Shown piece by piece: positions 15,652 through 63,006 of a stretch of DNA of 64,000 nucleotides. The stretch comes from an uncultured Verrucomicrobiae bacterium (GTDB lineage: Bacteria > Verrucomicrobiota > Verrucomicrobiia > Chthoniobacterales > JAFAMB01), in contig CAVXLD010000004.1 of the NCBI GenBank assembly GCA_963762565.1, forward strand, positions 1 through 64,000, given 5' to 3'. The translations under genes and the position numbers were made by a program. Position 1 is the first letter of the stretch. Every line of letters begins with the position of its first letter. The notes under the pieces were generated by a model. The model was not told the DNA's origin. It was given only the letters and a program-made list of their open reading frames with translations, and ran no database searches.

Positions 15652-15656
15652 AGCTC

Positions 15657-45248: not shown

Positions 45249-45404
45249 ACCGGCCAAGTCCCTTACCCAGGGAAACTCCGCCGAATGGTCCGACGCGTCA
45301 ATGCTGAAGAAGCCAGGAGCCAGAATCCAGGAGCCAGGAGGGGGCGCTTCTCGCCTTGGCATGTGGCCCACTTTGACTCTATGATTCTGCCAGCTTCCAA
45401 TTCG

Positions 45405-45588: not shown

Positions 45589-45614
45589 GGCAATGGTCTC
45601 CTAGCCCGTATTCA

Positions 45615-47303: not shown

Positions 47304-47510
47304 GTGAAGGTGAGAAGTGGGAAGTGAGAAGTGATTGGTGATTGGTGATTGGTAGGGCGAGGCTCCCGAACTACGATATAAATTTCGCGAAGCACCGCGT
47401 CTTCGACGAGCTGTCGGCAACTACGCCTGTCCGTGCGCCGAGCCGTGGCCCAGCGTGTCGAACCGCTGGGCGATGCGTCCCATAAGTCACATCAGTCCCA
47501 TAAGCCTATC
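47303..47510. repeat. Heptamer tracts, a single family A arm (47351-47450) and a GTCCCATAA tract
   Basis: gtgagaa/gtgattg units; ggtagggcgaggctcccg-N68-gccgagcc. Confidence 0.82.
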
Positions 47511-47653
47511 CGTATCCGTCTGCACGCCTACCACGCCCCGCCTCATAGCCCGTTTCTAGCGCCCGATCCATCCACCAAACTCGTAACTTGCGAATCATGT
47601 TCGCAAGCCGGAGCTTACCCCGGCAACTGAAAATTAAACCTGGAATCTGTATC

Positions 47654-48049
47654 ATGACTGATCCAATCAAACCAGATCCACTGCAGGACGAAGTGCACGC
47701 TCCCCGGACAAGCGAACCGAAACGAGATGGGGCCAGCGCGCTGGAATATCTAAAAAGTGAAAATGGTCCCTGGCTTCCGATCGTCGTCGGAGGATCCGCT
47801 CTGTTGATCGCGGCGGGCTATTTCTTAGGGCGATATTATGTACAACTCCATGCTCAAACCCCAACAGATCGCTTTCTTCACGAATTAGAGGATTGGGTAG
47901 AAGAGCGCAGCGAAGGCCTGCCTAAGGTAGTTCGGGACAAACTTAACGCGACCGTTGGATTCTTGGGCGCCTCTCTGCGCAACACGCCAATTAAACAAAT
48001 TGTTTCTCGCTTCCAAAACAAACCGCATCGACCGTTCAACCTCTTCTAA
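47654..48049 (+). CDS. Hypothetical membrane protein
   Basis: One TM helix; coupled to the next ORF through TAATG. Confidence 0.65.
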   Translation: MTDPIKPDPLQDEVHAPRTSEPKRDGASALEYLKSENGPWLPIVVGGSALLIAAGYFLGRYYVQLHAQTPTDRFLHELEDWVEERSEGLPKVVRDKLNATVGFLGASLRNTPIKQIVSRFQNKPHRPFNLF

Positions 48050-48345
48050 TGAATCAAGAAACTACTTCTTCTGTCGGAGCGTCAGAATTTTCGGCTGAAA
48101 ATGTGGATCGCCTCTTCGGCCGGCTGGATGAGAAGGTCCGGCAATCACCGCGTGAAGCGGTGCTGATCGCCTTCTTAGCTGGGGCTCTGTTGCAGGTGTT
48201 CGCCATCCGACACCTAGTATTGACCGCGGCCCGCGTCATTTTGTGGTTAGCGACTCCGGTACTATTTGTGTTTACCGCATGGAGGCTGTTTCAACTGGGC
48301 AACTCCGACGGGGGGTTAGGCCGATTTTTTGGAACTAAACAGTAG
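48049..48345 (+). CDS. Hypothetical membrane protein
   Basis: VRQSPREAVLIAFLAG followed by hydrophobic helices. Confidence 0.65.
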   Translation: MNQETTSSVGASEFSAENVDRLFGRLDEKVRQSPREAVLIAFLAGALLQVFAIRHLVLTAARVILWLATPVLFVFTAWRLFQLGNSDGGLGRFFGTKQ

Positions 48346-48373
48346 GACTCGCCGATGTCGGCGGATGCCCCAC

Positions 48374-48725
48374 GCGCTTCGCGCGAATAACCAATAGCCG
48401 ATAGCCAATAGCCAAGGGGCCGGTCGCAAGAAAGTCGTGCGCTTTGGCGTGGATCGAATGTGGACGGGCGTAAGCTCGGTGGAGCATCAACCCCAAGATC
48501 ACAAGACCGAAGATCACAATACGGAAAGGTCACGAAGGCCACAAAGACCGATCGTATGAGTCTGATTTTCAGTTTCAGTCTTCGTGTCCTTTGTGATCTT
48601 TCCGTATTGTGAATCTCTAGTTTCTCTGGGAAGTCGAACGCATGATCCACAGGCAAAATCGATAAGCCGATCTTTCGTTGGCTATTGGCTATTGGCTATC
48701 GGCTATTGAGATATGCGCGAAGCGC
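48374..48725. repeat. Nested inverted repeats (gcgcttcgcg, then AATAGCC heptamers, then CACAAAGAY-type tracts)
   Basis: Mirror-ordered reverse-complement blocks ending at the permease stop codon. Confidence 0.85.
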
Positions 48726-49720
48726 TAATCGTGCCGCAGAAGCTTGCGGAAATAGTCGATCGATACGGCCAGAATGATCACTGCTCCGACAAAGACCCCT
48801 TGCCAATAGGGATCAATGCCAAAAAGCAGCAGACCATTCCGCAGAACTTCGAGAATAATCGCACCGATCACCGTTCCCAGAATTGTGCCTTCGCCGCCAG
48901 CCAGGTTCGCTCCGCCGATCACAGTAGCAGCAATGACGGCTAACTCATTTCCAGTACCCATGTCAGCCGTCACGCTTCCTAAGTAACTGAATTGAGTGAG
49001 GCCGGCGATTCCGGCCATCAGCGCACACAACATATAGACGATAATCTTAAGGCGATCGACCCGCAGACCCGTCAATCTCGCGGTGCGCTCGCTTCCGCCT
49101 ACCGCGTAGACGTACCGACCCCAAACCGTCCGCGAAAGCAGAATCCAGAAAAATAGGCTGGCGATACAGAAAATAATAAATGGATTCGGGATCCCGAAAA
49201 TATCGCCTCCACCGATCCAGAGAAAAGACCGGTATTCGTCGCCAAATATCGAAATCGGTCGTCCATGCGTAACGATGAGGGCAAAGCTTCTGGCGATGGC
49301 TAGGGTGGCCAGCGTTGGCACAAAGGGAGACATCTTAAGCTGGGTGATACAGAACCCGTTTAAGAGCCCGATACAACAGGCGGCCGAAAGGCTGAGGAGG
49401 ATGGCAAGAGGCTCTGGCACGCCATGGGTTAACAAATAGGCAACGATCACCGCCGTCATGCCAAACACCGATCCCACCGAAAGGTCGATTCCGCCGGTTA
49501 GGATGACGCAGGTCATACCCATCGCCACGATCCCAACGAACGAGAAATTCGTCGTAATATTGGCGATATTCTGGAGGTTTCGAAACTGTGGGATAAAGAT
49601 TGCCAGGACGAGCAACATCAAGATGAGGGCGCCAAGGATCCCTATCTCGCGGGGAAGGCGAACAGTCCGCCGGCGTGACGTCTTTTCTGGATGGGGGGGC
49701 GCCACGGCTTCGGAGTTCAT
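48725..49720 (-). CDS. Sugar ABC transporter permease (RbsC-like)
   Basis: GGIDLSVGS, GRYVYAVG and ELAVIAATVIGG motifs. Confidence 0.93.
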   Translation of the reverse strand: MNSEAVAPPHPEKTSRRRTVRLPREIGILGALILMLLVLAIFIPQFRNLQNIANITTNFSFVGIVAMGMTCVILTGGIDLSVGSVFGMTAVIVAYLLTHGVPEPLAILLSLSAACCIGLLNGFCITQLKMSPFVPTLATLAIARSFALIVTHGRPISIFGDEYRSFLWIGGGDIFGIPNPFIIFCIASLFFWILLSRTVWGRYVYAVGGSERTARLTGLRVDRLKIIVYMLCALMAGIAGLTQFSYLGSVTADMGTGNELAVIAATVIGGANLAGGEGTILGTVIGAIILEVLRNGLLLFGIDPYWQGVFVGAVIILAVSIDYFRKLLRHD

Positions 49721-49919
49721 CTCGAATTCTAGAATCGAATCACAGCGTTATGGAGGATTTTTTACGGGATTCAAACAAATTCCTGCAGAAAAGGCTTGCA
49801 ACCAGCTCTTAACGGATGTGCTCTCTTCAATTCAAGCATTTAGATAAAACGCGCAGCGTCTATCTAGATGTAAATATCTCCTGCATTGGTCCAAATGCAG
49901 GATCCCCCAACTACCAATT

Positions 49920-50876
49920 ATGCCAAACCAGAAATTGTTTCTCTTGGCGGGCGTGGCGGTTTGCTCGCTCGCTTTGCCGGCAGGCCTCCATGCCGCCGGA
50001 AAACAGAAGACCTTCGCGATTGTCCCGAAGTCGATTAGCATCTCATTCTACAACGATGTGGAAAAAGGTTGTAAGGAGGAAGGCGCCAAGCTGGGCGTGA
50101 ATGTCATTTATACGGGTCCAGACACCGCCGACGCCGCAAAACAGGTGCAAGTCTTACAGGATTTGGTCAGTCGCGGTGTCGATGGCTTTGCCGTTGCTCC
50201 CATGGACGGCGATGCCGTGATTGGAGTGATCGAATCTGCGACTAAGAAAGGAATCAAAGTGATCTGTTTCGACTCGGACTCTCCCAAATCGCAACGGACC
50301 TGTTTTGTTGGTACGAACAATGAACAAGGTGGCTACGAAGGCGGCAAAGCCTTTGCGTCGATGTTACCCAAAGGCAAATTTGCAGTTCTTACGGGTGGTT
50401 TGGCTTCCGTAAACCATAACCAGCGTGGCGACGGATTTCGTAAAGCATTGAAAGAGGCAGGAGGTGACTACACCGAAATCTCGGGTTCACCCTTCCCCTG
50501 CAATGACGACGCCGCAAAATCGATCCAGATCATCCAAGACACCTTGACTCGGTACCCCGATCTGGATGGGTTTTTCTTTTCGGGCGGCTGGCCTCTTTTC
50601 GGCGCTCCGGAAGCCTATCTGCGGGCAATGGGCAAGCACCTTGACGACATCAAGAGTAAGAAGTTTGTGGTCATCTCTTTCGACACCTTGCCGGAAGAGC
50701 TCAAAATCGTGAAACAGGGCGCCTGCAATGGCCTGATCGGCCAACGACCCTACGCGATGGGAGTCAAGAGCGTCGATATTCTGAATGACCTTACCGAAGG
50801 CAAAACCGTCCCTGCGGTTGTTGATACCGGCGTTGACGTCGTGACTTCGGCGAATGTGGATCAATTCTTGAAGTAA
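49920..50876 (+). CDS. Sugar ABC transporter substrate-binding protein (RbsB-like)
   Basis: Signal peptide, FDSD...VGTNN and GQRPYAMG motifs. Confidence 0.92.
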   Translation: MPNQKLFLLAGVAVCSLALPAGLHAAGKQKTFAIVPKSISISFYNDVEKGCKEEGAKLGVNVIYTGPDTADAAKQVQVLQDLVSRGVDGFAVAPMDGDAVIGVIESATKKGIKVICFDSDSPKSQRTCFVGTNNEQGGYEGGKAFASMLPKGKFAVLTGGLASVNHNQRGDGFRKALKEAGGDYTEISGSPFPCNDDAAKSIQIIQDTLTRYPDLDGFFFSGGWPLFGAPEAYLRAMGKHLDDIKSKKFVVISFDTLPEELKIVKQGACNGLIGQRPYAMGVKSVDILNDLTEGKTVPAVVDTGVDVVTSANVDQFLK

Positions 50877-50886
50877 TCGACCCGGT

Positions 50887-50912
50887 GGGCGGAAAGCGCC
50901 TGCTTTCCGCCC
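50887..50912. terminator. Hairpin between the convergent binding-protein gene and iol operon
   Basis: gggcggaaagc-gcct-gctttccgccc forms a perfect 11-bp stem; no clear U-tract. Confidence 0.55.
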
Positions 50913-51004
50913 GTCCAGACGAATCTGTCGCCAACTCTTATTTCTTACGAGTCAACCTTTTCGGCGCGATGTTAGACTAGGCAATAGTTAATGCTCGTCG
51001 TCCC

Positions 51005-51820
51005 TCAGCCCTTCATTGGAACCGTAATTGGGTTCCCGGCCCAATTTTGGGATACCCAATCGTACTCCGGGTCGTTGATCGCGGTTATCTTCCTGACATC
51101 CCCGGCCAGAAAATTCAGGTAATAGGCATTCGTTCCCGGCGCTTTGACAACTGGGTGGTATCCTTCGTGGATCAGGACCAAATCACCATTCTGAACTGGA
51201 ATCGCCACATCTAGATCCGTGTCTCGAGTATAGATCCGCTGAATCGCGAAACCGTTCTCCGGACGCAACCGATAGTAATAGGTCTCTTCGTGGTAAGAAG
51301 AATTATCGCGAGTGTCATGGCGATGGGGAGGAAAACTCGACCAATTGCCGCTCGGAGTATGAATCTCGTAAACGGTTAATCGCTCGGTGAGTTCGTCGGA
51401 ATCAGCCAGAGCACTCACGCCCCGTTTCACGTTAGCGTCACCGCGCACCGATGTCTTGATCTCGTCTTTTGAGATTCGCCGGGCCGGCAATTTACCTTCA
51501 GCAGGAGCGCCACCGATGGCCACCTCGATCGACTTGGCAGCTCGCAGCGAAAAATTGCTCCGGGGAGGGAGATAATAAATATCCGTGAGTTCCTCAAATA
51601 CCGACCTCCGCGAGAATGAAAACTCTTCCTCACCAAAGGCACAGAACCCTTCACCACTCAGCGGTACGACGACAAACTCTGACTCTTCCGTGTTGAACCG
51701 TTGAGTCTGCTCGGGCTCCAAAGCGAGGACGCGGAAGGAAAGATAACGCCACTCGGCTTCCTTCGGCGTAACGTTGATGCGAAACGGATTCGAATAGTTA
51801 GATCGATAATGGCGGTTCAC
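51005..51820 (-). CDS. iolB: 5-deoxy-glucuronate isomerase
   Basis: GNWSSFPPHRHD, EETYYY, GYHP and YYLNFLAG motifs. Confidence 0.93.
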   Translation of the reverse strand: MNRHYRSNYSNPFRINVTPKEAEWRYLSFRVLALEPEQTQRFNTEESEFVVVPLSGEGFCAFGEEEFSFSRRSVFEELTDIYYLPPRSNFSLRAAKSIEVAIGGAPAEGKLPARRISKDEIKTSVRGDANVKRGVSALADSDELTERLTVYEIHTPSGNWSSFPPHRHDTRDNSSYHEETYYYRLRPENGFAIQRIYTRDTDLDVAIPVQNGDLVLIHEGYHPVVKAPGTNAYYLNFLAGDVRKITAINDPEYDWVSQNWAGNPITVPMKG

Positions 51821-52836
51821 GGCTGTATCTCCGAAACTTTAACCGGGCGGTTCTCCTTCCAACTACGACTTGCCGCGATTGCCAGCCGCAGCGTCTCGAG
51901 CGCGTCTTCTGCGCCCGGAGACGGCATTTGGCCGGACTTGATCGCTTCAAAAAATGCTTGTAACTCCAGCCGATACGCGGCCTCGAAACGATCGGGAAAG
52001 TTTTCGTAATGATCGTAGCGAGCGCCAAATTCGCGCGACAAAGTCATCGGCGTTTTCTGCGGCGCTTCGATCACAACTTTGGCGTCTGCACCGGCTACTT
52101 CCGTCCGGATATCATAACCCCACTTTGAGCGCCGGGACGTTTCCACAACCCCTAACGCTCCATTCTTAAACTTGAGCAGGGTAACGGCCGTATCGCAGTC
52201 CTGGGCTTGGGCGAAGCGGTCGTCGATCAACACGGATCCCCAGGCGGACACCTCTTCAACCTCACCCACCAAAAACCGAGCCAAGTCGAGATCGTGAACC
52301 GCCATGTCCAGAAAGGAACCGCCGCTTTGAAGCAGAAACTTGAGCGGCGGCGGATAGGTATCACGGCTTAAAGCCCGAAAGGTTTCGATGCGGCCGAGCT
52401 CTCCCTGATCAATCCTTTTCTTCGCCTCCGCGTAACCCGGGTCATAGCGGCGCATGAAACCGAGCTGCACAAAAGCGCTCTTCTTTTGAATCAAATCAAC
52501 GACCCTCTTTGTCTCAGCCAAATCGAGGGCAATCGGCTTCTCGCTAAACACAGCTTTCCCAGCCTGCACGGCGGTCTCGATCAGTCGGGCATGCGTATCG
52601 GTCGGGGTAACGATAATCACGACATCGACCGATGGATCCAGAATTGCTTCTTCCGTGCTGACGATCGCCCAATCCGCACCTGATAATTCGCGCCCACGCT
52701 CAGCCGCCTTCAGATTCGGATCGGCTACCACCCTGACGCGAACACCATTGATCGACGCTAGATTTCGCAGATGAGTCTCGCCCATCCGCCCGCAACCGAG
52801 AAACGCAACGCCAATTTCCGCTTTCGCTTTGGTCAT
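51817..52836 (-). CDS. iolG: Inositol 2-dehydrogenase (Gfo/Idh/MocA)
   Basis: GCGRMG, SEKP, GFMRRYD, DMAVHD and GYDIRTEV motifs, in iol context. Confidence 0.82.
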   Translation of the reverse strand: MTKAKAEIGVAFLGCGRMGETHLRNLASINGVRVRVVADPNLKAAERGRELSGADWAIVSTEEAILDPSVDVVIIVTPTDTHARLIETAVQAGKAVFSEKPIALDLAETKRVVDLIQKKSAFVQLGFMRRYDPGYAEAKKRIDQGELGRIETFRALSRDTYPPPLKFLLQSGGSFLDMAVHDLDLARFLVGEVEEVSAWGSVLIDDRFAQAQDCDTAVTLLKFKNGALGVVETSRRSKWGYDIRTEVAGADAKVVIEAPQKTPMTLSREFGARYDHYENFPDRFEAAYRLELQAFFEAIKSGQMPSPGAEDALETLRLAIAASRSWKENRPVKVSEIQP

Positions 52837-53843
52837 TGAATCTCCTCTAGACGAACCACACGCCCTTCCTTATGGCTCCGAGTCGCTGCAATCCCAATTC
52901 GCAATGCTTCGACGGCATCGACCGCGCCCGGCGTTGGAGGACGGCCTTCTTGCACGCAAGCGAAGAACGACTCCAGCTCCGCTTGAAACGCGTCTTTGAA
53001 TCGATCCATGAAGAAGTAAAAATGATCTTCCTCGGAGCCCCCCTCCCGGTAATGACGCAACGGGCTCTTGCGTTCGGCGTGAACCACCAGTTTACCGCGT
53101 TCTCCGAATACTTCGGTTACAATGTCGTAGCCGTAGATCGCTCGACGTGAATTCTCGATCACCCCGAGCGCTCCGTTCTTAAACCGCAAGAGGGTGGTCG
53201 CGGTATCAACATCACCAAAGTCGGCCGCATCTTTAAGGAACCGGGCAGCTCCCCAGGCGCTGACCGATTCTACTTCGCCCACCAGAAATCGAGCCAGATC
53301 AATCTCGTGAATCATCTGATCCAAGAAGAGTCCGCCGCTCGTCTCAAGGTATTCCCGAGGAGGCGGCGCCGGGTCGCGGCCGACCGACCTGAATTGGTCA
53401 ATGCGGCCAATTAAGTTTCGATCGATCTTTCTCCGAGCTTCCGCATAACCGGTATCAAACCTTCGCTGGAACCCGATTTGGAAAGGAATAGCGGCTTGCT
53501 CGACCGCATGGAGCGCCTTCTTGGTGCGTTCCAGGTCCAATGCAACCGGCTTCTCACAAAACACCGCTTTGCCGGAGCGCGCGCCGGCCTCAATCAAATC
53601 TGCGTGGGTGCCGGTTGGGGTACAGATTACGACCGCATCGATCTCTTTTGATGCGAAGACTTCGGCAGGATCGCTGATCGCTTTTGCGCCCGGAGCCTTG
53701 GCGGCAATCTTTTCCGCTGCTTCCAGAATGGCATCACAAACCGTGGTCAAGGAAACACTGGGAGACCCGATCAATGTCCTGGCATGCTCTTGGCCAATCC
53801 GGCCGGCGCCGAGCAGAGCAACTCGAGTTCGTTTAGTATTCAT
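52833..53843 (-). CDS. iolG: Inositol 2-dehydrogenase-like paralogue (Gfo/Idh/MocA)
   Basis: GAGRIG, CEKP, GFQRRFD, DQMIHE and YGYDI motifs. Confidence 0.78.
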   Translation of the reverse strand: MNTKRTRVALLGAGRIGQEHARTLIGSPSVSLTTVCDAILEAAEKIAAKAPGAKAISDPAEVFASKEIDAVVICTPTGTHADLIEAGARSGKAVFCEKPVALDLERTKKALHAVEQAAIPFQIGFQRRFDTGYAEARRKIDRNLIGRIDQFRSVGRDPAPPPREYLETSGGLFLDQMIHEIDLARFLVGEVESVSAWGAARFLKDAADFGDVDTATTLLRFKNGALGVIENSRRAIYGYDIVTEVFGERGKLVVHAERKSPLRHYREGGSEEDHFYFFMDRFKDAFQAELESFFACVQEGRPPTPGAVDAVEALRIGIAATRSHKEGRVVRLEEIQ

Positions 53844-54772
53844 CTCTTGTTTTGAAAATCAGCTGCGATCCGTCGTGAAACCTGCAGGGCCGATAGCCCG
53901 TATTTATCGAGCAGAAAATCGTTGGGCGCAGATTCACCCCATTTGTCTTCGAGGCCGTAGCGGATCACCCGGCGTGGAGAATTCGCGGAGAGCAGCTCAG
54001 CCACCAGGCCGCCAAGCCCGCCGAAGATGCTATGTTCTTCCACGGTGAAAATGAGGTCGTAAGCGGAACAAGCGTCTATCAATGCGGCCTCGTTCAAAGG
54101 CTTAATCGAAGGAATGTGGAGAACGCCGAGCTCGATCTGTTGTTTCGCCAATTCGTTCGCCGCTTCAAAACAACGAGACGATTGCGGACCGGTCGAGATC
54201 AACAGGGCATGCTCGCCCCGGCGCAGCCAACGAATTTCACCGAGAGTGAATTGGTAATCCGCCGTAAACACATCCGCGCTGGCATCGCGAGTCAGTCGAA
54301 GATAGACCGGGCCCTCATATTCTGTGGCCCATTTAATCATAGCGGCGCATTCGTATTGATCCGCCGGCGCCAGCAGGGTCATCCCCGGCATCGCCCGCAT
54401 GATGGCCAGGTCCTCGACATCGTGGTGCGTTTTCCCGGTGTAACCGGTCATCAACCCCGAGTAAGCCGCACCAATTTTTACATTGGCGTTGGTCTGCGCA
54501 ACGAGCATCCGAATTGGATCAATCGCCCGATGAGTGAAGAAGACAGTGAAAGTCGAAAGCCAAGGAACAAAGCCCACCGCTGCCATACCGACCGCAACGC
54601 CCACCATGTTTTGCTCAGCGATCCCCATCTCCAAAAACCGGTCCGGATGAGCAGCCGCGAATTTGTCCGCTTTGGTGGAATTCGCGAGATCTCCATCGAG
54701 CATCACGACCCGCTGATCTTCCTTCGCCAAAGCTACCAGGGTGTCAGCCCAGACATCTCTTAGTGCTTTCAT
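53840..54772 (-). CDS. Split transketolase, C-terminal (pyrimidine-binding) subunit
   Basis: GIAEQNM, TGKTHH, GPVYLR and VEEHS...GGLG motifs. Confidence 0.92.
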   Translation of the reverse strand: MKALRDVWADTLVALAKEDQRVVMLDGDLANSTKADKFAAAHPDRFLEMGIAEQNMVGVAVGMAAVGFVPWLSTFTVFFTHRAIDPIRMLVAQTNANVKIGAAYSGLMTGYTGKTHHDVEDLAIMRAMPGMTLLAPADQYECAAMIKWATEYEGPVYLRLTRDASADVFTADYQFTLGEIRWLRRGEHALLISTGPQSSRCFEAANELAKQQIELGVLHIPSIKPLNEAALIDACSAYDLIFTVEEHSIFGGLGGLVAELLSANSPRRVIRYGLEDKWGESAPNDFLLDKYGLSALQVSRRIAADFQNKR

Positions 54773-55647
54773 TTTGCAGCCTCCGTGATCTGAAGTTCAC
54801 GCCGGGCAAGGTCGAGCTCAGCCGGGTTCGCAACCTTGGAATGCCATTCGAATTTCCCTTCGGTGAACGACAACCCTTTCCCTTTGAGCGTGCGCGCTAC
54901 AATCATGGTCGGGCGGCCAACCGGCGGTTGAGCTTTGCATTCCCGGATAGCGGGCAGGATTTCGTCGAAGCGATGGCCGTCGATCTGGACGACGCGCCAA
55001 CCCAGGTTCGCGAAAATCGCCGGCAAATCCACGTTATTCCAGGGATCGCGCCGGTCGCCTCGACCGTCAGCATCGTTCTGTTTCAACCAGCCAAACTGTT
55101 GGAGCCCGTTCGAATCCAGGATCGCGGTCAGATTCCCTAGCTGATAACGCGGGGCTAGGTGGAGTCCCTCCCAAATCATACCCTCTTGCAGTTCGCCGTC
55201 CCCGATCATGACAAAGGAATGAAAGCGTTCCTGTTTTTTCTGGGCCCCCAAGGCGAATCCGATCCCGACCGAAAGCCCCATTCCCAACGATCCGGTAGAT
55301 GTTTCGAGACCCGGTAGCTTGGTGACGTCTGGATGGCCTTGCAGCCGGGAATTGCCTTTGTCGAATGTCTTCAATTCTTCGACTGGAAAAAATCCTCTGA
55401 GCGCCATCACAGTGTATAGCCCGATGGCGGCATGACCTTTGGAAAGAATGAAACGGTCGCGCTCCGGCCATTTCGGTTCTTCCGGCCTGATCTCCATGCC
55501 CCGAAAGAAAAGGCTGATCAGCAGATCCATGGCTGACATGGGTCCGCCCACATGGCCGGCGCCGCTTCCGGCAACCGTGCTAAGCACCAACCAACGGCCT
55601 TGCCGCGATAGTTCCTCGAGATCGGAATAATCGGTATCTAGTTTCAT
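54769..55647 (-). CDS. Split transketolase, N-terminal (ThDP-binding) subunit
   Basis: GHVGG, DRFILSKGH, LQGHP, STGSLG, GDGELQEG...N and WH motifs. Confidence 0.93.
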   Translation of the reverse strand: MKLDTDYSDLEELSRQGRWLVLSTVAGSGAGHVGGPMSAMDLLISLFFRGMEIRPEEPKWPERDRFILSKGHAAIGLYTVMALRGFFPVEELKTFDKGNSRLQGHPDVTKLPGLETSTGSLGMGLSVGIGFALGAQKKQERFHSFVMIGDGELQEGMIWEGLHLAPRYQLGNLTAILDSNGLQQFGWLKQNDADGRGDRRDPWNNVDLPAIFANLGWRVVQIDGHRFDEILPAIRECKAQPPVGRPTMIVARTLKGKGLSFTEGKFEWHSKVANPAELDLARRELQITEAAK

Positions 55648-56513
55648 GTGATCAGTGGTTCTAGGTAGCGTCGATTGTTGGCCGCTATCTGGGTAGGATC
55701 GTCCGGGGTAGTGTCTTGTTCGACCACTAGCCAGCCGTTGTAGCCGGCTTGGCGCAGCGAATCGATGACGTCGGGCACTCTCGCGATGCCCTCACCCAGC
55801 GGAGCGAAGATGTAGGATTTTAAGGCCTGAGCAAAACTCCAACCGTTCTCCCGGGACTCCTTGAGCACCTGACCGTCGACATCTTTGATATGAACGTAAC
55901 CGACACGGTTACCGTATTTCTTTAGTGCCCGCAGGTTGTCACCGCCGCCGTAAGCAAGATGGCCGCAGTCCAGGCACCAGCTCACCAACTCCGGGTCCGT
56001 TTCGTCCAGGAGCCGGGTGGTTTCTTCCTCGGTTTCTACGTAGGTGCCGACGTGATTATGGAAAACGACCCGTACCCCAATCGAAGCCAGTTCTTTGGCC
56101 AGATCGTTTAGTCCGGTCCCGAGCGATTTCCATTGGTCATCAGTTAGGGCGCCGCTGGCATCAACGTGCCCGGCCTCACCGCGACGTCGATCGTCGCCGC
56201 TGTCGGCTGCGATCAAGTAGCCACCTCCAGCCGACTGGAAAAACCGGCCGATCTCGACTGCCCGAGCGATTTCGGCCTCACGTTTTTGACGATTACGCAG
56301 CTCCAAACCAACAAAGCCACCCAGCATTTGCAGGCTCCGCTGCTGGAGGTCGGACCGTAGCTTGGCGGTTTCTCGCTCCATGTTCATGCCCCATTCGGTG
56401 GCAACGTACCCCGCGGCCACCATCTCATCCAACAACGCTGGATAAGGCACCCAGGGCCGATAGTCGGTTACGTCTCCGTTGTTCCAATTAACCGGCGCAG
56501 TGGCGAGCTTCAT
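55644..56513 (-). CDS. iolE: Myo-inosose-2 dehydratase-like TIM barrel protein
   Basis: APVNW, FHNHVGT, LDCGH, VHIKD and WLVVEQD motifs, in iol context. Confidence 0.8.
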   Translation of the reverse strand: MKLATAPVNWNNGDVTDYRPWVPYPALLDEMVAAGYVATEWGMNMERETAKLRSDLQQRSLQMLGGFVGLELRNRQKREAEIARAVEIGRFFQSAGGGYLIAADSGDDRRRGEAGHVDASGALTDDQWKSLGTGLNDLAKELASIGVRVVFHNHVGTYVETEEETTRLLDETDPELVSWCLDCGHLAYGGGDNLRALKKYGNRVGYVHIKDVDGQVLKESRENGWSFAQALKSYIFAPLGEGIARVPDVIDSLRQAGYNGWLVVEQDTTPDDPTQIAANNRRYLEPLIT

Positions 56514-58402
56514 GCTAAAACCGGGCGCTGCTTCTTGGTGGCTTCCTCGTAGTTCACCCGGGTTGTCTTGGTGTGATCCGCCGAGCTAACTTCTGCGACC
56601 GGCACATCCCACCAGGTTCCCATTCCCGGCATTCGGTTTTCGGGATCGACCGGGATCACCACTACCGTGATCCGGTCTGACTTACGCGCTTTCTCCAGCG
56701 CCGCTTTCACTTCGCTGGAAGTGGTCGCGAAGATGGATAGGGCGCCCATCGATGCCGCATGTTTCTGGAAGTCGACCGGAACATAATCGCCCGCCGGTGC
56801 ACCCTCTTTCCCGTCGCGGAAACGGAGTTCGTTACCGAAATCGGCTACCCCGACCGCCCGCTGCAAACCGAGAATGCATTGGAACCCGTGGTTGTCGACC
56901 AATACAATCGTGATCCGAATTCCTTCAGCGACTGCGGTCACGATCTCGGAATTCATCATCAGATAAGAGCCGTCCCCAACCATCACGACGACTTCCCGTT
57001 CCGGTTCCGCCAATTTCACCCCCAGGCCACCTGCGATCTCGTAACCCATGCAAGAATATCCGTATTCGAGGTGATAGGCTTTCGGATCCTCAGGCCGCCA
57101 GAGCCGGAGTAGCTCGCCCGGCAGGCCACCAGCCGCGCAAACGACGGTCGCCTTGCCGCCGAAGCTTTCGTTGACTAATCCGATGACGGCGGTCTCAGCC
57201 AGTTTGCCCGGTGTATCATTCTTTACCGAGCGTATGTCAGTGACTTTGGCATCCCACTCCGCCTTCAGCGATTTTACCTGGCTCCGGTATTCCTGGCTGG
57301 TTCCTCTGTAGCCGCTTTCGCGCAACGCCTGGCTCAATGCACCCAGCGCTCGTTTCGCATCGGCCACGACCGGCAACGCGGCTAGCTTATTCGCGTCCAT
57401 CGGCACCACATTGATGCCGATAAATCGGACCGACGGGTTCTGGTAAGCCGATTTCGACGCGGTGGTGAAATCGCTCAGCCGGGTGCCCAATGCGATCACT
57501 AAATCCGCGTCCACAGCTAACCGGTTTGCACTGGTAGATCCGTTTGATCCAACCGGGCCAGCATTCAGCTCATGGTTCCAATTGAGAACCCCCTTCCCGG
57601 CTTGCGTCTCGCTGATTGGGATCCCGAACTCTTCCACGAAGGCCCGCAAATCTTCGGCTGCCTCGGCGTAAATGGTACCGCCACCCGAAACGATCAACGG
57701 TTTTGACGCACCGGCGATCAACTCTGCCGCCTTACGAATCAGCTCCGGCTCAGGCAATGGCCGGCGCACATGCCAAACCCGGCGCTCGAAAAATTCGACC
57801 GGATAATCGTAAGCTTCGGCCTGAACATCTTCCGGCAAACTAATGGTGACGGCGCCAGTCTCTGCGGGATCGGTCAAGACACGAAAGGCTTCCGGTAAGC
57901 TGGCCAATAATTGTTCGGGTCGGGAGATGCGATCGAAAAACTTCGAAACCGGCCGGAAAGCATCACTTACGCTGACATCTCTTTCCAGAGGATGCTCCAA
58001 TTGTTGAAGCACCGGGTCAGGAATACGATTGGCGAAATAATCGCTGGGCAATAGCAGGACGGGCAACCGATTGACGCTCGCCGCAGCGGCGCCGGTAATC
58101 ATGTTCGTGGCGCCGGGACCAATTGAGGTTGTGCAGGCAAACGTCGCTAACCGGTTTCGATGTTTGGCAAATGCAGCCGATAAGTGGACCATCGCCTGTT
58201 CATTCTGAGGTCGATAAAAGGGCAGCCCTTCTTCCCGAGCCAACTCGACGATGCCTTGACCAAAGCCGGCGACGTTGCCGTGCCCGAAGATACCCCAAAT
58301 CCCTTCGATAAAGCGGCTTTGACGGCCGTCGCGTTCAACGAATTGGCGAGCCAGGAATCGGGTCAGAGCCTGGCCAGTGGTTAGTCGTACGGTACGATTC
58401 AT
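56510..58402 (-). CDS. iolD: 3D-(3,5/4)-trihydroxycyclohexane-1,2-dione acylhydrolase
   Basis: RLTTGQAL, IFGHGNVAG, PDPVLQQLE, YHLEYGYSCMGYE and WWDVPV motifs. Confidence 0.96.
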   Translation of the reverse strand: MNRTVRLTTGQALTRFLARQFVERDGRQSRFIEGIWGIFGHGNVAGFGQGIVELAREEGLPFYRPQNEQAMVHLSAAFAKHRNRLATFACTTSIGPGATNMITGAAAASVNRLPVLLLPSDYFANRIPDPVLQQLEHPLERDVSVSDAFRPVSKFFDRISRPEQLLASLPEAFRVLTDPAETGAVTISLPEDVQAEAYDYPVEFFERRVWHVRRPLPEPELIRKAAELIAGASKPLIVSGGGTIYAEAAEDLRAFVEEFGIPISETQAGKGVLNWNHELNAGPVGSNGSTSANRLAVDADLVIALGTRLSDFTTASKSAYQNPSVRFIGINVVPMDANKLAALPVVADAKRALGALSQALRESGYRGTSQEYRSQVKSLKAEWDAKVTDIRSVKNDTPGKLAETAVIGLVNESFGGKATVVCAAGGLPGELLRLWRPEDPKAYHLEYGYSCMGYEIAGGLGVKLAEPEREVVVMVGDGSYLMMNSEIVTAVAEGIRITIVLVDNHGFQCILGLQRAVGVADFGNELRFRDGKEGAPAGDYVPVDFQKHAASMGALSIFATTSSEVKAALEKARKSDRITVVVIPVDPENRMPGMGTWWDVPVAEVSSADHTKTTRVNYEEATKKQRPVLA

Positions 58403-58843
58403 AAGATGTGAGAGGTGGTTGGTGAGGGGTCAGGTTACCGGGGGCATGCCACAGAAGTAATCAGTAAACAGTAATCAGTGATCGAAAAATGAGGGTCACC
58501 ACGATACGACGAAGCGTGGCGCCGGTTCGGGGGAACACCGGTGGTTGCGTGTGGGGGGGCGTTAAGGGGGACGGTCGACTTTCGTTTGGTTTTCGTTGTG
58601 ATAAAGAAATGAAATCGAATCCTTTCCGTTTCAACCTGAATTTTTGACGAAATTTTAGCGGACCAGACCATCACCACCGCTTCTGGCCGGATCGGTTTTC
58701 CGCTCTTGGAAACATTCGGACCAGCATCCTTCAGACAACCCTCGCCATCATGAAAAAAGAGTTCGAATTGCTTTCGTTGGTCGCAGAAGACGATATCCTT
58801 TTGCTTCCCGGGTTCAGAGAACCGGATCGCCCGACTTAACAGT

Positions 58844-60985
58844 ATGAAACATTGTTCCGTCCGAATCATGGCCATAGTGGCAGGATCCCCGCTGGTGTTG
58901 ATGGCGCCCAGCAGCCAGGCAGACCAGGGCGCTTGGTTGTTCAACGCGCCGCCGCTGAAGCAATTGAAGGAAAAATACCATTTTACCCCAGACGCAGCCT
59001 GGTTGGAGCACATCCAAAAGAGCAGCGTTCGGTTTGACAACGGAGCCAGCGGTTCGTTTGTGTCCGCGAACGGTTTAGTCATCACCAATCAGCACGTCGG
59101 GGCCGACGCTTTGCAGGAATTCGGAGACGCTCAGCACAATTATACTCGAGACGGATTTTACGCCGCCACACCGGCCGAGGAAAAGCGGTGTTACGACTTG
59201 GAACTCAACGTTCTGGAGTCAATCGAGGATGTCACCGGGCGAGTCAACGCCGCAGTCCCCCCTGCCAGCAAACCCGAGGAGGCCGTGGCGGCACGGCGAA
59301 AAGTCATCGCCGAGATCGAGCAGGAGTCGGCCAAAAGAACTGGGTTGCGCAGCGACGTGGTGACTCTTTTCGAAGGAGGCAGTTATCAATTGTACCGCTA
59401 TAAACGATATACCGATGTGCGCCTGGTTTTTGCGCCGGAGGAGGGAATAGCGTCTTATGGTGGCGATCCCGATAATTTCGAATATCCGCGCTACGATTTG
59501 GATATCTGTCTGTTTCGCGTATACGAAAATAATCAACCGGTTCATCCTGAGCATTATCTGCGGGTTAATGTTGACGGGCCATCTGAGCATGACTTGGTCT
59601 TCGTGAGCGGAAATCCAAGTAGTACCAATCGCATGTGTACCGTCGCCGCGATCGAAGAGGAACGGGATACTATCCTGCCGACCATTTTGGCGGCCCTCAA
59701 ACGAAGAGAAGTTTTCCTGACCGCTTATAGCGCGCGCGCGATAGAAAACGCACGACGGGCCCGAGACTACCTTTTGGAAATACAGAATTCCAGAAAGGCC
59801 TGCGACGGTCTGTTAGCCGGATTACTCGATCCGGAATCGCTCCGTCTGATCTCTGAAAATGAAAATGGATTGAAATCGGCTGCCGCTCAAGACGCTCGTT
59901 TTTCGAATATTCCGGATGCGTATGCGGAGATTCAGAAGGCCATCTCTGCTGATCCGGAAAATATTGTGAAGTTTATGTTCTATGAGAATTCCCACGCGAG
60001 GACTTCGGTGTTCGAACCGTTCGGAGCGTACCCGATAGGGTTCGACGGTCAGTTGTTTGCGATTGCTCGTGCTTTAGTTCGCGCGACTGAAGAACGCGAA
60101 AAACCAAACGAGAAACGCTTGCCCGAGTACCGCGACTCCGCTCGACCGAGCCTGGAGCTCGGGTTGTTCTCTGCAGCACCGATCTACGATGATTTAGAGA
60201 TACTGGCACTCAGCGATGCGCTAACTAGTTTGGTTTCCGCTTACGGAGTTGATGACCCGGTCGTCCGTGGCTTGCTGCAGGGGAAGTCTCCTCACGACCG
60301 CGCTTACGAGTTAGTGAAAAACACGCGGCTAAAGGACGTCCAATTTCGCCATCAGCTTTATGACGGAGGCGTTGCCGCCTTAAGAGCTGCTGCTGATCCA
60401 ATGATTCAATTTGCGCAAGCAGCCGATCAGGTTGCTCGCCAGGCGCGAGAGACCATGGAGGAACAGGACGAGGTGATGAATAAGGCATACGCCGAAATCG
60501 CAAAAGCAAAACTGGCACTCGAGGCAGACCAATTCCCGCCCGATGCAACTTTCACTTTACGGTTGTCTTTCGGAACCGTGCAGGGCTACGAGCAAGATGG
60601 AAAAACGATCCCGACATTTACGAATTTTGCGGGATTGTATCAGCGGGCCGATGAACACGAAAATCGCCCGCCATTCGCATTGCCAACCCGCTGGGTAAAT
60701 AAGCGTACAGTAATCGACTCGAAAACCCCCTTTGACTTTGTGGCCACGACAGACATCGTCGGCGGCAATAGCGGCAGCCCAGTGATAAATCGGAACGGCG
60801 ATTTTGTTGGCATCATCTTTGACGCAAACATTCAGTCATTGCCTTGGGATTATCTTTATTCGGATAAACAAGGACGGGCTGTCGCAGTTGATTCTCGAGC
60901 GATTCTTGAAGCGCTAAAACACGGCTACGACGTTCCGGCTCTGGTAAGCGAGTTAGCCGGGGGAACGCAGACTGCCGACAAGTAA
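58844..60985 (+). CDS. S46 family dipeptidyl peptidase
   Basis: ADQGAW (DEGMW-like), TNQH, PDATFTLRLSFG and DIVGGNSGSP motifs. Confidence 0.92.
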   Translation: MKHCSVRIMAIVAGSPLVLMAPSSQADQGAWLFNAPPLKQLKEKYHFTPDAAWLEHIQKSSVRFDNGASGSFVSANGLVITNQHVGADALQEFGDAQHNYTRDGFYAATPAEEKRCYDLELNVLESIEDVTGRVNAAVPPASKPEEAVAARRKVIAEIEQESAKRTGLRSDVVTLFEGGSYQLYRYKRYTDVRLVFAPEEGIASYGGDPDNFEYPRYDLDICLFRVYENNQPVHPEHYLRVNVDGPSEHDLVFVSGNPSSTNRMCTVAAIEEERDTILPTILAALKRREVFLTAYSARAIENARRARDYLLEIQNSRKACDGLLAGLLDPESLRLISENENGLKSAAAQDARFSNIPDAYAEIQKAISADPENIVKFMFYENSHARTSVFEPFGAYPIGFDGQLFAIARALVRATEEREKPNEKRLPEYRDSARPSLELGLFSAAPIYDDLEILALSDALTSLVSAYGVDDPVVRGLLQGKSPHDRAYELVKNTRLKDVQFRHQLYDGGVAALRAAADPMIQFAQAADQVARQARETMEEQDEVMNKAYAEIAKAKLALEADQFPPDATFTLRLSFGTVQGYEQDGKTIPTFTNFAGLYQRADEHENRPPFALPTRWVNKRTVIDSKTPFDFVATTDIVGGNSGSPVINRNGDFVGIIFDANIQSLPWDYLYSDKQGRAVAVDSRAILEALKHGYDVPALVSELAGGTQTADK

Positions 60986-61006
60986 TTTCCCGCTCAGCTG
61001 ATATCC

Positions 61007-61327
61007 GGAAGGGCGAGGCTCCCGAAAGAGCGAGCGGTTGAACAAGGCTCAGCTGCCTAAACCTCGCCAACTACAAGCTAGGTACACAAGCGCGCCGAGC
61101 CATGGTCTATCATGGGCCACGGCTCCGACTTCGCTCTCACTTTGTACCTAGATCACTAACAGCGCCGAAAAGCTACGTCGGACAAGTCGGCGCGTCTTTT
61201 GGCGTTGGTCGATGATAGGTTGAGTGCAGGCGATTTTCCCTTGACTACAGACTGGGTCTCTCAGGAGCCTCGCCCCGCCAATCGCCAATCACCAATCACC
61301 AATCACCAATCACCAATCACCAATCAC
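61007..61327 (+). repeat. Family A element (61007-61279) with a nested family C hairpin (61124-61186), followed by ~7 ACCAATC units
   Basis: Homologous to 37667 and 38994, which lack the insertion. Confidence 0.92.
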
Positions 61328-62007
61328 ACCTCCACACTTTCCCCGGGCTGCAGGATCGCAACCTTCGCTTTGCCTTCGGCGAGGCGGGCAAACTCTTTCG
61401 GGTCGCCAAATAGAGGCGGCCACGTGCCGTAGTGGATCGGGACGACGACCGTTGGATGGAGGAATTCGACCGCTTTGGCTGCGTCCTTTGGTCCCATAAC
61501 GAAATGTTCGCCAATGGGCAGAAACGCGAGGTCGATCGCCGCATCGTCCCCGATCAATTTCATGTCCGAGAAAAGAGCAGTATCACCGGCGTGAAAAACG
61601 GTTTTGCCTTCTACCTGAATAATCACTCCGGCCGGTTCTCCAAGATAGATGGGACGCCCATTCTCATCCGTTACCGATGAGCTGTGGATCGCTTGGGTGA
61701 ATTTGACGGCGCCGAAGGGATATTTGCACCAGCCACCGTGATTCTGGGGTGACGCCTTTGCGCCCTGGGTACCCAACCAACTTGCCAACTCAAAAGTCGA
61801 AATGATTGTGGCGCCCGTACGTTTGGCAATGGGCAACGCGTCCGCAATATGATCGCTGTGCCCGTGCGTCAGCACGATAAAATCCGGCTCCAAATCATCT
61901 GCTTTTGCACCCGCTTTAGGATTCCCCGTGAGGAACGGATCGATAAGAATCTTCGTTTTATCGGTCTCGAGATAAACCGTCGCGTGTCCAAGAAAGGTCG
62001 CTTTCAT
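61324..62007 (-). CDS. Metal-dependent hydrolase (metallo-beta-lactamase fold, UPF0173-like)
   Basis: LGHA, IDPF, THGHSDH, HAGDT and PIHY motifs. Confidence 0.92.
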   Translation of the reverse strand: MKATFLGHATVYLETDKTKILIDPFLTGNPKAGAKADDLEPDFIVLTHGHSDHIADALPIAKRTGATIISTFELASWLGTQGAKASPQNHGGWCKYPFGAVKFTQAIHSSSVTDENGRPIYLGEPAGVIIQVEGKTVFHAGDTALFSDMKLIGDDAAIDLAFLPIGEHFVMGPKDAAKAVEFLHPTVVVPIHYGTWPPLFGDPKEFARLAEGKAKVAILQPGESVEV

Positions 62008-62065
62008 AAGAGGCTATAACGTTCGTACGTTGTAGTTTCTAGTGGGTTTCGGCTACGCCCATCGC

Positions 62066-62188
62066 CGGGAGGGATCGCGTCCTCGCGATCCGTTGTCGTC
62101 GAAGCCGAGGACGGTTCTAATCGCGGACGAAAATACATCGTTGGGTGCTGACACGTCCTCGCGGCGCGCGGGGACGCGCGCCCTCCCC
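62066..62188 (-). repeat. Family D REP doublet (reverse orientation)
   Basis: Same arms as 35012, with a 69-nt spacer. Confidence 0.9.
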
Positions 62189-62248
62189 GACTCGCACCCG
62201 CGTAGCGAGCCAGGAACACCTCGAGGCCATCACTTTGCCAGCCTAAAA

Positions 62249-62929
62249 CTACTCTCCGTTCACGATCGCAATCGCGAAACCGTCGTATCCTTTGCTGCCC
62301 ACAGTCTGAATGGCGGTCGCAGAAACTCCCTGTTCCTTTGCGAGCAGCTCAAAGAAACGACGCATACCCACTACGCTCGGATCTTTACTCCCAGGATCGG
62401 CGACAGCGCCTTTGCGGATCACGTTATCCGTTATGATCAGGGTACCCGGGCGCGACAGTTTAAGCGCCCAGACGAAATAATCAGCGGTGCTAACTTTATC
62501 GGCGTCGATAAAAATGAAATCGAACGGTGCGATCCCTTCAGTCGCCAAGCCCGGCAAAAGATCTAATCCCCGGCCCACCCGGAGCTCGACTCGGTCGGTT
62601 AGGCCAGCGCGTCGAAGATTAGCGCTCGCTACCTCGGCGTGTTCCGGGCTCGCTTCCAAAGTGATCAAACGCCCATCTTTAGGCAAAGCTCGAGCTAACC
62701 AAATGGTGCTATAGGCGCCTAGTGTACCGAGTTCTAAGATCTTGCGGGCTCCGATTAGCCGCGCGAACAGCCACAAAAGCTTCCCTTGGGTGGGCGTTAC
62801 ACTGATCGCCGGGAGCCCTGCAGCATCGCTATCCTTAAGAGCAGCTTCCAGCGCCGGATCGGAAGGGATCAGCAAATCCGTGAGGTATTCGTCTACCACC
62901 GTCCATTGATCTTCATAGTCCAGTTTCAT
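62249..62929 (-). CDS. O-methyltransferase (catechol/caffeoyl-CoA type)
   Basis: LELGTLGAYS, FDFIFIDADK, DNV and QTVGSKGYDG motifs. Confidence 0.92.
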   Translation of the reverse strand: MKLDYEDQWTVVDEYLTDLLIPSDPALEAALKDSDAAGLPAISVTPTQGKLLWLFARLIGARKILELGTLGAYSTIWLARALPKDGRLITLEASPEHAEVASANLRRAGLTDRVELRVGRGLDLLPGLATEGIAPFDFIFIDADKVSTADYFVWALKLSRPGTLIITDNVIRKGAVADPGSKDPSVVGMRRFFELLAKEQGVSATAIQTVGSKGYDGFAIAIVNGE

Positions 62930-63006
62930 TTGCTCGGTTCTCCAGGGGAAACGTGGTGAACGAACACTAAAGTTGTGGGCCCGGCAAATAAAAGCGGAGG
63001 CAACCA

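Follow-up and report, generated by a model that had tools for sequence, protein, structure and literature searches.

Described routes and comparable transketolases

Inositol derived from phytate is a major carbon source in soil and gut. To our knowledge, all described bacterial routes of its breakdown that pass through IolB end in a kinase/aldolase pair, and the free ketol 5-dehydro-2-deoxy-D-gluconate (DKG) is the only known product of IolB. The locus described here shares with the canonical B. subtilis-type pathway (IolG-IolE-IolD-IolB-IolC-IolJ-IolA) the upper four steps, represented by matches to the IolG, IolD and IolB models and by an IolE-like protein. The kinase, aldolase and dehydrogenase of the canonical pathway, however, were not found among the scanned ORFs of the window (the whole 64-kb stretch of DNA analysed) or in two related clusters, and a variant split transketolase is encoded in the operon instead. 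The proposed products are a ketose phosphate and a C4 acid, compared to DHAP, acetyl-CoA and CO2 in the canonical pathway. No description of a transketolase-dependent ending to inositol breakdown was found in the literature searched.

Transketolases do occur in other catabolic systems. The apulose-4-phosphate transketolase of the D-apiose pathways, reportedly described by Carter et al. in 2018, is said to be likewise split and devoted to one catabolic route, but to act on a phosphorylated branched ketose. In the sulfoquinovose route through SqwGH, as PMC9594981 presents it, a cluster-encoded transketolase takes the place of the kinase and aldolase that serve a parallel route; the ketose that it cleaves is free, has an anionic far end (6-deoxy-6-sulfofructose) and gives up its ketol to glyceraldehyde-3-phosphate, and the enzyme acts twice after isomerisation. 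The logic of a transketolase inside the cluster is common to SqwGH and the route proposed here, whereas the DKG route would allow one cleavage, since the CH2 group at C2 of DKG leaves chemistry for no second one.

An engineered E. coli transketolase (R358I/H461S/R520Q) is given in PMC12016104 as having raised activity on 5-keto-D-gluconate, with tartaric semialdehyde as the product, and a transketolase together with succinate-semialdehyde dehydrogenase is described there as a proposed route from 5-keto-D-gluconate to tartrate (PMC12016104, citing Wang 2022 and Salusjarvi 2004). 5-Keto-D-gluconate is the 2-hydroxy analogue of DKG. As far as that source describes it, the engineered reaction resembles the one proposed here in the bond concerned (C4-C5 of a 5-keto-hexonate), in its C4 acid semialdehyde product, in a succinate-semialdehyde-type dehydrogenase as the next step (Curtobacterium encodes one) and in a change at His461. 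It differs in being catalyzed by a laboratory variant on a 2-hydroxy substrate, whereas in the natural clade Arg358 and Arg520 are conserved and the changes are at Arg91, His461 and Asp469.

The operon and its surroundings

Seven minus-strand ORFs (58402..51005) encode, in this order, IolD, an IolE-like protein, TktN, TktC, two IolG proteins and IolB. The first gene (iolD; 56510..58402, minus strand) is assigned to the ThDP-dependent 3D-(3,5/4)-trihydroxycyclohexane-1,2-dione hydrolases (TIGR04377, 898.7 bits; cut-off 715), and its product has 60% identity to the IolD of a Sphaerobacteraceae MAG (locus L002) and 50% identity to that of Curtobacterium. It is followed, through an ATGA overlap, by a gene for a TIM-barrel protein (55644..56513, minus strand; Pfam AP_endonuc_2) that is probably a scyllo-inosose dehydratase; it has the same fold as IolE, its best match is TIGR04379, at 223.2 bits and thus below the cut-off of 290, and it is 39% identical to the protein at the equivalent cluster position in L002. 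The tktN gene (54769..55647, minus strand; Pfam Transketolase_N, 161.9 bits) encodes the ThDP/diphosphate-binding half of the split transketolase, and tktC (53840..54772, minus strand; Pfam Transket_pyr and Transketolase_C) the pyrimidine-binding and C-terminal half. Against NF004559, the two halves reach about 235 bits each, below a cut-off (488) set for the full-length protein, as is expected because the enzyme is split. An inositol 2-dehydrogenase gene (iolG; 52833..53843, minus strand; TIGR04380, 380.6 bits; cut-off 355) and a second iolG paralogue (51817..52836, minus strand; 351.6 bits, just under the same cut-off), possibly for another inositol isomer, precede the last gene of the operon, iolB (51005..51820, minus strand), for a 5-deoxy-glucuronate isomerase (TIGR04378, 269.7 bits; cut-off 205).

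A preliminary description of this DNA had called these seven genes and reported 4-nt overlaps at all six junctions. The ORFs lie at exactly the limits given there and match the family profiles, although two of the products, the second IolG and the IolE-like protein, stay below their cut-offs, and the overlaps were read as five ATGA and one GTGA, the latter between the second iolG and iolB. The gene arrangement is no chance neighbourhood; two further phyla have this gene set as well.

The NCBIfam and/or Pfam scan of the window covered the ORFs of at least 150 amino acids in 1-45000 and, from 44000-64000, a selection of 19 ORFs. Among the ORFs scanned, none had a match to a sugar kinase (PfkB or other), a class II aldolase or an aldehyde dehydrogenase, as the preliminary description had claimed for cluster and window; the DKG kinase IolC, the DKG-6-P aldolase IolJ, the malonate-semialdehyde dehydrogenase IolA and an enzyme for the predicted C4 aldehyde were likewise not found among them. 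An iron-type alcohol dehydrogenase is encoded at 14369-15523, 36 kb from the operon.

A gene for a sugar-type periplasmic binding protein (49920..50876, plus strand; Pfam Peripla_BP_4, 2e-64) is convergent with the operon. Its product, which resembles rhamnose, allose, ribose and rhizopine binding proteins weakly, may be an uptake component. Divergent from it lies a gene for a ribose-type ABC permease (48725..49720, minus strand; NF007067, 245.9 bits, below cut-off; Pfam BPD_transp_2), and the ORF list for 47300-51100 holds no ATPase-sized ORF beside the permease. Upstream of iolD, the intergenic region up to a divergent S46 peptidase gene (58403..58843, read from the sequence) is the presumed promoter/operator region; a consensus promoter scan, the counts of which were at chance level, gave no hit in it, and no Rfam family matched.

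Substrate-site residues and the proposed reaction

Residue positions were read off an alignment to E. coli TktA, in whose numbering we take His26, His66, His100, His261 and His473 to be catalytic, Glu411 to activate the cofactor and GDG...N to be the diphosphate/metal motif. All of these are present in TktN/TktC. TktN retains the first four histidines together with Asp155 and Asn185 and carries Arg91 to Asp, Ile189 to Gln and Gly262 to Ser changes and an 11-residue insert. TktC retains Arg358, Ser385, Glu411, His473 and Arg520 and carries His461 to Tyr and Asp469 to Thr changes, both invariant in all 121 close homologues. The nearest solved structure to TktN is 6YAK (E = 1.5e-70), the N-terminal component of a split-chain transketolase, which shares the two-gene architecture but in the alignment shows the standard Q-I-D-G following the metal-binding Asn, with no insert.

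Tyr461 combined with Thr or Ser at 469 was found in four of the 76 scorable split-transketolase rows (the window, L001, L002 and L081), while generic split transketolases keep His461 and Asp469 (55 of 76 rows). At position 91, all four clade rows have Asp, whereas 65 of the 78 other rows have Arg. In a quick IQ-TREE analysis of 84 TktC rows, the 11 rows with the signature formed one clade (SH-aLRT 99). Clade-wide, the substrate channel carries Arg91 to Asp, His461 to Tyr and Asp469 to Thr/Ser changes. The clade has an insert as well, and it retains Arg358, Ser385 and Arg520, which bind anions, together with the catalytic and cofactor residues. The preliminary description had predicted substrate-site differences from housekeeping enzymes, and the replacement of Arg91, His461 and Asp469 agrees with this; judged by its residues, the window transketolase is not of the housekeeping type and its substrate pocket is remodelled. 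According to PMC5073344, Asp469 and Arg91 form a salt bridge in the E. coli enzyme, and D469T opens the pocket and provides a hydroxyl that binds substrate carboxylates. Arg358 and Arg520 do not tell donor from acceptor, because both suit either a phosphate or a carboxylate.

We propose that the lower branch of inositol catabolism encoded by this operon depends on transketolase. IolG, IolE, IolD and IolB, assigned by family membership, would take inositol through scyllo-inosose, the diketone and 5-deoxy-D-glucuronate to DKG. DKG would then escape phosphorylation and aldolase cleavage, and free DKG would act as ketol donor for TktN/TktC: the C4-C5 bond would be cut, and C6-C5 would be carried on ThDP and handed to an aldose phosphate. 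Glyceraldehyde-3-phosphate as acceptor would give xylulose-5-phosphate, with erythrose-4-phosphate and ribose-5-phosphate equally possible. The remainder would be 3-hydroxy-4-oxobutanoate, a hydroxylated succinate semialdehyde, which the succinate-semialdehyde-type dehydrogenase of Curtobacterium would oxidise to (R)-malate. The stereochemical argument made earlier for DKG as a donor was reproduced: starting from 5-deoxy-D-glucuronate in its textbook configuration, one arrives, from the CH2OH-CO end, at 3-left, 4-right (D-threo) as in fructose and xylulose, and at (R)-malate upon oxidation. We put the probability that TktN/TktC moves C6-C5 of DKG to an aldose phosphate and leaves a C4 acid semialdehyde at roughly 0.55. 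That a dedicated clade splits free DKG into a C2 unit for the pentose-phosphate pool and (R)-malate semialdehyde, spending no ATP and replacing IolC/IolJ/IolA altogether, is held more tentatively, at a little under even odds.

Related loci, alternative readings and significance

Gene context was visible for four clade members, three of which belong to iol clusters that have no iolC, iolJ or iolA: the Verrucomicrobia-like window, L002 and a Curtobacterium plasmid island. In all three, the transketolase genes lie inside the catabolic cluster, the IolC/IolJ pair is absent and IolB is kept. The L002 cluster (iolE-tktN-tktC-iolG-iolB-iolD) has overlapping junctions, and a search of its 12.5 kb revealed no kinase, no aldolase and no aldehyde dehydrogenase. 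The island on Curtobacterium plasmid P20 is flanked by conjugation and mobilisation genes and encodes an ABC transporter, an MFS sugar porter, LacI, two IclR regulators, three Gfo/Idh/MocA proteins including IolG, two TIM-barrel proteins, IolB, IolD and an aldehyde dehydrogenase, as well as TktN, TktC, a PfkB kinase and a PEP carboxykinase; iolC, iolJ and iolA were not annotated in plasmid positions 1-133900. The aldehyde dehydrogenase gene is translationally coupled to iolD by a 4-nt overlap. Its product scores best to TIGR01780 (succinate-semialdehyde dehydrogenase; 535.7 bits, below cut-off), and the methylmalonate-semialdehyde dehydrogenase (IolA) model is not among the 25 matches listed for it. 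An enzyme of the type that the predicted aldehyde would need is encoded in Curtobacterium, and is absent from L002 and the scanned ORFs of the window. The PEP carboxykinase gene follows the transketolase unit, which fits a C4-dicarboxylate product.

The transketolase unit of Curtobacterium is a transcription unit separate from the iol genes, with the two IclR genes between, and includes the PfkB gene directly after tktC and translationally coupled to it. This kinase is of the 1-phosphofructokinase/hexose-kinase type, with no match to the IolC model at E <= 1e-15. Its coupling to tktC, together with the remodelled channel, would suit cleavage of DKG without a sugar-phosphate acceptor, in which glycolaldehyde is released or the C2 unit passes to a non-phosphorylated aldehyde and the product is then phosphorylated, in Curtobacterium by PfkB. 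We regard this as the least likely of the alternatives, however: no kinase was found among the scanned ORFs of the window or in L002, the named members matched in the subfamily of the Curtobacterium kinase act on sugar phosphates, and Arg358, Ser385 and Arg520 are retained.

A sugar-phosphate-type kinase beside tktC, and the conservation of these three residues and the catalytic ones, would also fit a canonical pathway with iolC, iolJ and iolA elsewhere in the genome, in which a pentose-phosphate-type transketolase balances sugar-phosphate pools during growth on inositol. The iol genes of other bacteria are indeed often scattered over several loci. This is nevertheless unlikely, as three channel residues typical of housekeeping transketolases and of most split ones are replaced in the whole clade, and iolC/iolJ/iolA are missing from three clusters in three phyla, one of them in a plasmid island with transfer genes at its borders. 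Moreover, none of the 78 split-transketolase loci without the clade signature has IolB or IolD (at least 30% identity; L062 has a 26% match to a ThDP enzyme), in a contig scan whose loci were dominated by the generic GDGELQEG pattern and are mostly unrelated split transketolases.

The fourth visible context is that of Leucobacter celer (L001), where IclR, tktN, tktC and an SDR gene lie together with no iol gene within 10 kb; the clade thus also occurs outside iol clusters. The earlier prediction that it stays in iol operons lacking iolC thus stands for three of the four contexts, none of them with an IolC equivalog, IolJ or IolA, and fails for Leucobacter. The substrate range of the clade may be broader, taking in free ketoses or other 5-keto acids. 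The Leucobacter SDR matches the GolD/DthD and gluconate-5-dehydrogenase families, two IolG paralogues are encoded in the window, and laboratory variants at Asp469 and His461 gain non-phosphorylated substrates, as described in PMC5073344 and PMC12016104. All this would suit a general transketolase whose substrate in iol clusters is not DKG; it might use 5-deoxy-glucuronate as acceptor, cleave a ketose from another cyclitol via the second IolG or salvage glycolaldehyde. Against it stand the presence of IolB in all three iol-linked clusters and the fact that DKG is the sole pathway intermediate with a CH2OH-CO-CHOH end, and we consider it as improbable as the scattered canonical pathway.

The clade is present in at least three phyla and is frequent among Verrucomicrobia-like contigs from soil and water metagenomes. 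Four contig sizes (20722, 50689, 33081 and 39409 bases) are shared between the list of IolB homologues and the transketolase lists, and these equal sizes suggest an IolB-transketolase linkage in further Verrucomicrobia-like relatives.

Returning to transketolase cleavage of DKG, the operon points to an undescribed, ATP-free ending of inositol breakdown. If true, one ATP would be saved per inositol, and carbon would flow to pentose phosphates and a C4 acid rather than to DHAP and acetyl-CoA. The clade would also provide an enzyme that cleaves 5-keto acids in nature, which is sought by engineering for tartrate, as PMC12016104 indicates. In a large survey (PMC9430895), the core genes are iolB, iolC, iolD and iolE; this set includes iolC, and carriers of this operon would therefore not be counted. 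Genome surveys with iolC as a core marker would miss such inositol users, and the inference of inositol use from genomes would change.

The seven-gene operon and its neighbourhood

Seven minus-strand ORFs, running from 58402 to 51005, were found exactly where the preliminary description had placed them, and all six junctions between them are 4-nt start/stop overlaps (five ATGA, one GTGA); its operon limits, gene calls and overlaps were therefore right in detail. The genes encode, in order, IolD (NCBIfam, 898.7 bits; cut-off 715), a TIM-barrel protein resembling IolE (223.2 bits, short of its cut-off of 290), a transketolase in two halves, N-terminal (tktN) and C-terminal (tktC; NCBIfam and Pfam), IolG (380.6 bits; cut-off 355), another IolG that narrowly misses this cut-off (351.6 bits) and IolB (269.7 bits; cut-off 205). 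No sugar kinase, aldolase or aldehyde dehydrogenase was matched among the ORFs scanned (in 1-45000, all those of at least 150 aa; in 44000-64000, a selection of 19), in agreement with the earlier statement that the window holds none. Where close homologues of IolB and of the two transketolase subunits had a named source, it was a Chthoniobacterales, Terrimicrobiaceae or Verrucomicrobia MAG, with 67-75% identity; the organism probably belongs to the Verrucomicrobiota.

The neighbouring genes are unrelated to the operon. A gene for an S46 peptidase diverges from iolD, one for a sugar-binding protein converges on iolB, and the others encode an ABC permease with no ATPase partner and an aspartate-alanine antiporter. 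The ribose-type permease gene (minus strand) and the sugar-binding protein gene (plus strand) are divergently arranged at 48725-50876, with no adjoining ABC ATPase gene and only small flanking ORFs lacking a family match; the pair makes up a transporter that is incomplete or has an unusual arrangement. No regulator gene lies directly beside the operon, an Rfam scan identified no riboswitch near it, and a scan of 50700-59000 for consensus promoters and terminators returned chance-level counts with no usable signal. Two copies of the 9-nt word ACTGATTAC, separated by 14 nt, are present at 58457-58479 (minus strand), approximately 55-75 nt ahead of the start of iolD; they may form an operator or be there by chance. 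The sole Rfam match in the window was an Acido-Lenti-1 sRNA motif at 21201-21246 (plus strand; 50.5 bits, gathering score 37). An iron-type alcohol dehydrogenase (14369-15523, minus strand) gave sub-cut-off matches to 4-hydroxybutyrate dehydrogenase and lactaldehyde reductase; this kind of enzyme could reduce a C4 hydroxy-aldehyde, and we claim no tie to the operon because the two are 36 kb apart.

A variant split transketolase

Both halves were aligned with E. coli TktA (NC_000913.3), the split transketolases of 80 genome-contig loci and that of one plasmid locus. Residue roles are given in E. coli transketolase numbering, in part following PMC5073344 and PMC12016104. The window transketolase retains the catalytic histidines 26, 66, 100, 261 and 473, the GDG...N cofactor motif with Glu411, and the anion-binding residues Arg358, Ser385 and Arg520. 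The preliminary description had proposed comparing its substrate-site residues with those of housekeeping transketolases, and here Arg91, His461 and Asp469 were replaced. The window protein shares these changes (Arg91 to Asp, His461 to Tyr, Asp469 to Thr or Ser), together with Ile189 to Gln, with loci from Leucobacter celer (L001), a Sphaerobacteraceae MAG (L002) and a Curtobacterium plasmid (L081). Gly262 is Ser or Asn in the window, L001 and L081, the L002 residue being masked. All four carry an insert of 5-11 residues after the metal-binding loop (with the motif RGDRRDPW in the window protein), and the region of E. coli positions 189-225 spans 41-47 residues compared to 36. An Asp469-Arg91 salt bridge, and an effect of D469T on the binding of carboxylate-bearing substrates, are described in PMC5073344.

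Of 76 loci whose C-half could be scored, 55 retained His461 and Asp469, four had Tyr461 with Thr/Ser469, 13 had Ser/Ala461 with Leu469 and the remaining four had other combinations. Arg91 was conserved in 65 of 78 non-clade rows. In the close homologues, all 121 TktC sequences had Tyr461 and Thr469, and 114 of 120 TktN sequences had the N-half motif NGLQQ[FY]GW. In a quick IQ-TREE analysis of 84 TktC rows (six loci without a C-half of at least 200 aa omitted), all 11 signature rows formed one clade with an SH-aLRT of 99, a support value given without bootstrap and less reliable where branches are long. The N-half motif was present in 10 of the best 150 matches in a library of 50%-identity representatives; Asp91 was common to representatives down to approximately 48% identity, including a fused form of 628 residues with Tyr461 and Thr469, and Arg91 reappeared at approximately 44%. 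There is no dedicated NCBIfam model, each half matching generic transketolase models only, below their cut-offs. Judged from these alignments, the clade is small and coherent; its substrate channel is remodelled and its catalytic apparatus intact.

A further variant clade among the split transketolases, with Ser/Ala461, Leu469 and Q-Q-G-A/D after the metal loop, was monophyletic for TktC (SH-aLRT 100) and comprised L022, L024, L028, L044, L047, L061, L063, L065, L073, L075, L078, L079 and L080, mostly from Actinomycetota and Acidobacteriota. An IolG-like gene lies 6 kb downstream in L073.

Gene context in other genomes

The genome-contig search, built on aligned close homologues of TktN, mostly matched the generic pattern GDGELQEG; because this pattern dominated, only two clade members (L001 and L002) were among the 80 loci listed, and none came from Verrucomicrobia relatives. 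The other 78 were unrelated split transketolases without the signature and served as controls, none of which had iolB or a close iolD. In L002, iolE-like, tktN, tktC, iolG, iolB and iolD genes follow one another in the same direction with mostly overlapping junctions, a P-type ATPase gene lies downstream on the opposite strand, and the scanned ORFs include no kinase, aldolase or aldehyde dehydrogenase. The contig edge (12-410), just upstream of the iolE-like gene, carries a HAD-IIA phosphatase fragment of the 2-phosphoglycolate/sugar-phosphate phosphatase type, which might supply the pathway as an inositol-phosphate phosphatase.

A tblastn search of plasmids with TktN gave 754 matching records, among which plasmid P20 of Curtobacterium sp. 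MCJR17_020 was the sole clade member, the remaining matches having at most 46% identity. Conjugation genes on one side and a relaxase on the other enclose its island. The genes come in this order: ABC sugar transporter, MFS sugar porter and LacI regulator; three dehydrogenases of the Gfo/Idh/MocA family, among them iolG, and two TIM-barrel proteins; iolB, iolD and an aldehyde dehydrogenase that shares a 4-nt overlap with iolD; a pair of IclR regulators on the opposite strand; tktN, tktC and PfkB kinase, joined throughout by 4-nt overlaps; and a GTP-dependent PEP carboxykinase. The aldehyde dehydrogenase best matched succinate-semialdehyde dehydrogenase, with a sub-cut-off score of 535.7 bits. 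The PfkB and PEP carboxykinase genes follow tktC at 13847-16816 of the locus. The kinase best matched hexose-kinase/1-phosphofructokinase models, with the IolC model absent at E <= 1e-15, ruling out IolC; its substrate could be fructose-6-P or sedoheptulose-7-P from the transketolase. No iolC, iolJ or iolA is annotated at positions 1-133900 of P20, all but its last 14 kb, in the PLSDB gene table, which is incomplete.

Homologous operons carrying both the transketolase and iolC had been named beforehand as evidence against a bypass; all three iol-linked clusters (window, L002 and Curtobacterium) were without IolC. A canonical lower pathway (IolC, IolJ, IolA) could be encoded elsewhere with the transketolase as a helper, which we consider unlikely given the remodelled pocket, the retention of IolB and the self-contained plasmid island.

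The clade was also expected to be confined to iol operons, and this held for the same three clusters and failed for L001, where the clade transketolase occurs in an IclR-tktN-tktC-SDR unit (9005-12604) with no iol genes within 10 kb. Thus, of the four clade members whose context could be read, three belong to iol clusters without the canonical lower pathway. Genes for polyol dehydrogenases, a DkgA-type reductase and acid transporters surround the L001 unit, and the clade may have a role in a different keto-sugar or keto-acid pathway as well. That the clade accepts free ketoses or keto acids broadly, and uses a different compound in iol clusters, seems to us improbable in view of the same pocket, retained IolB and self-contained island. 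The list of IolB homologues and the transketolase lists had four contig sizes in common (20722, 50689, 33081 and 39409 bases), equal base counts that by themselves hint at further iolB-transketolase pairs on one contig.

Proposed ketol transfer from DKG

Gene content, coupling, clade signature and recurrence are direct observations; the donor, acceptor, product and the product's fate are what we infer. The IolB product 5-dehydro-2-deoxy-D-gluconate (DKG) is the only pathway intermediate with a free CH2OH-CO-CHOH end. Our own derivation, from the established structure of 5-deoxy-D-glucuronate, yields the fructose-like threo configuration previously assumed: read from the CH2OH-CO end, its two hydroxyls point left and right (D-threo), as in fructose and xylulose. 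Phosphorylation at C6 by IolC would block ketol transfer, and a transketolase step would therefore be chemically sensible only with IolC bypassed. Cleavage of DKG between C4 and C5 would place C6-C5 on ThDP and release 3-hydroxy-4-oxobutanoate, which would be oxidized to (R)-malate; no gene for this predicted C4 aldehyde was found in the window. The retained Arg358 and Arg520 are compatible with a phosphate. Cleavage of DKG without a phosphorylated acceptor is unlikely, with two clusters lacking a kinase speaking against it.

We found no description of a transketolase step in inositol catabolism in the full-text literature outside subscription journals and bioRxiv supplements. According to PMC12016104, which cites Wang 2022 and Salusjarvi 2004, variants of E. 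coli transketolase cleave 5-keto-D-gluconate, the 2-hydroxy analogue of DKG, yielding tartaric semialdehyde, and transketolase with succinate-semialdehyde dehydrogenase is a proposed tartrate route. Repeated cleavage by the transketolase, known from the sulfo-TK route, was ruled out here by chemistry because the isomerized C4 product would have no hydroxyl next to the would-be ketone. In its pathway logic, the proposed inositol route would parallel the sulfoquinovose transketolase route described in PMC9594981.
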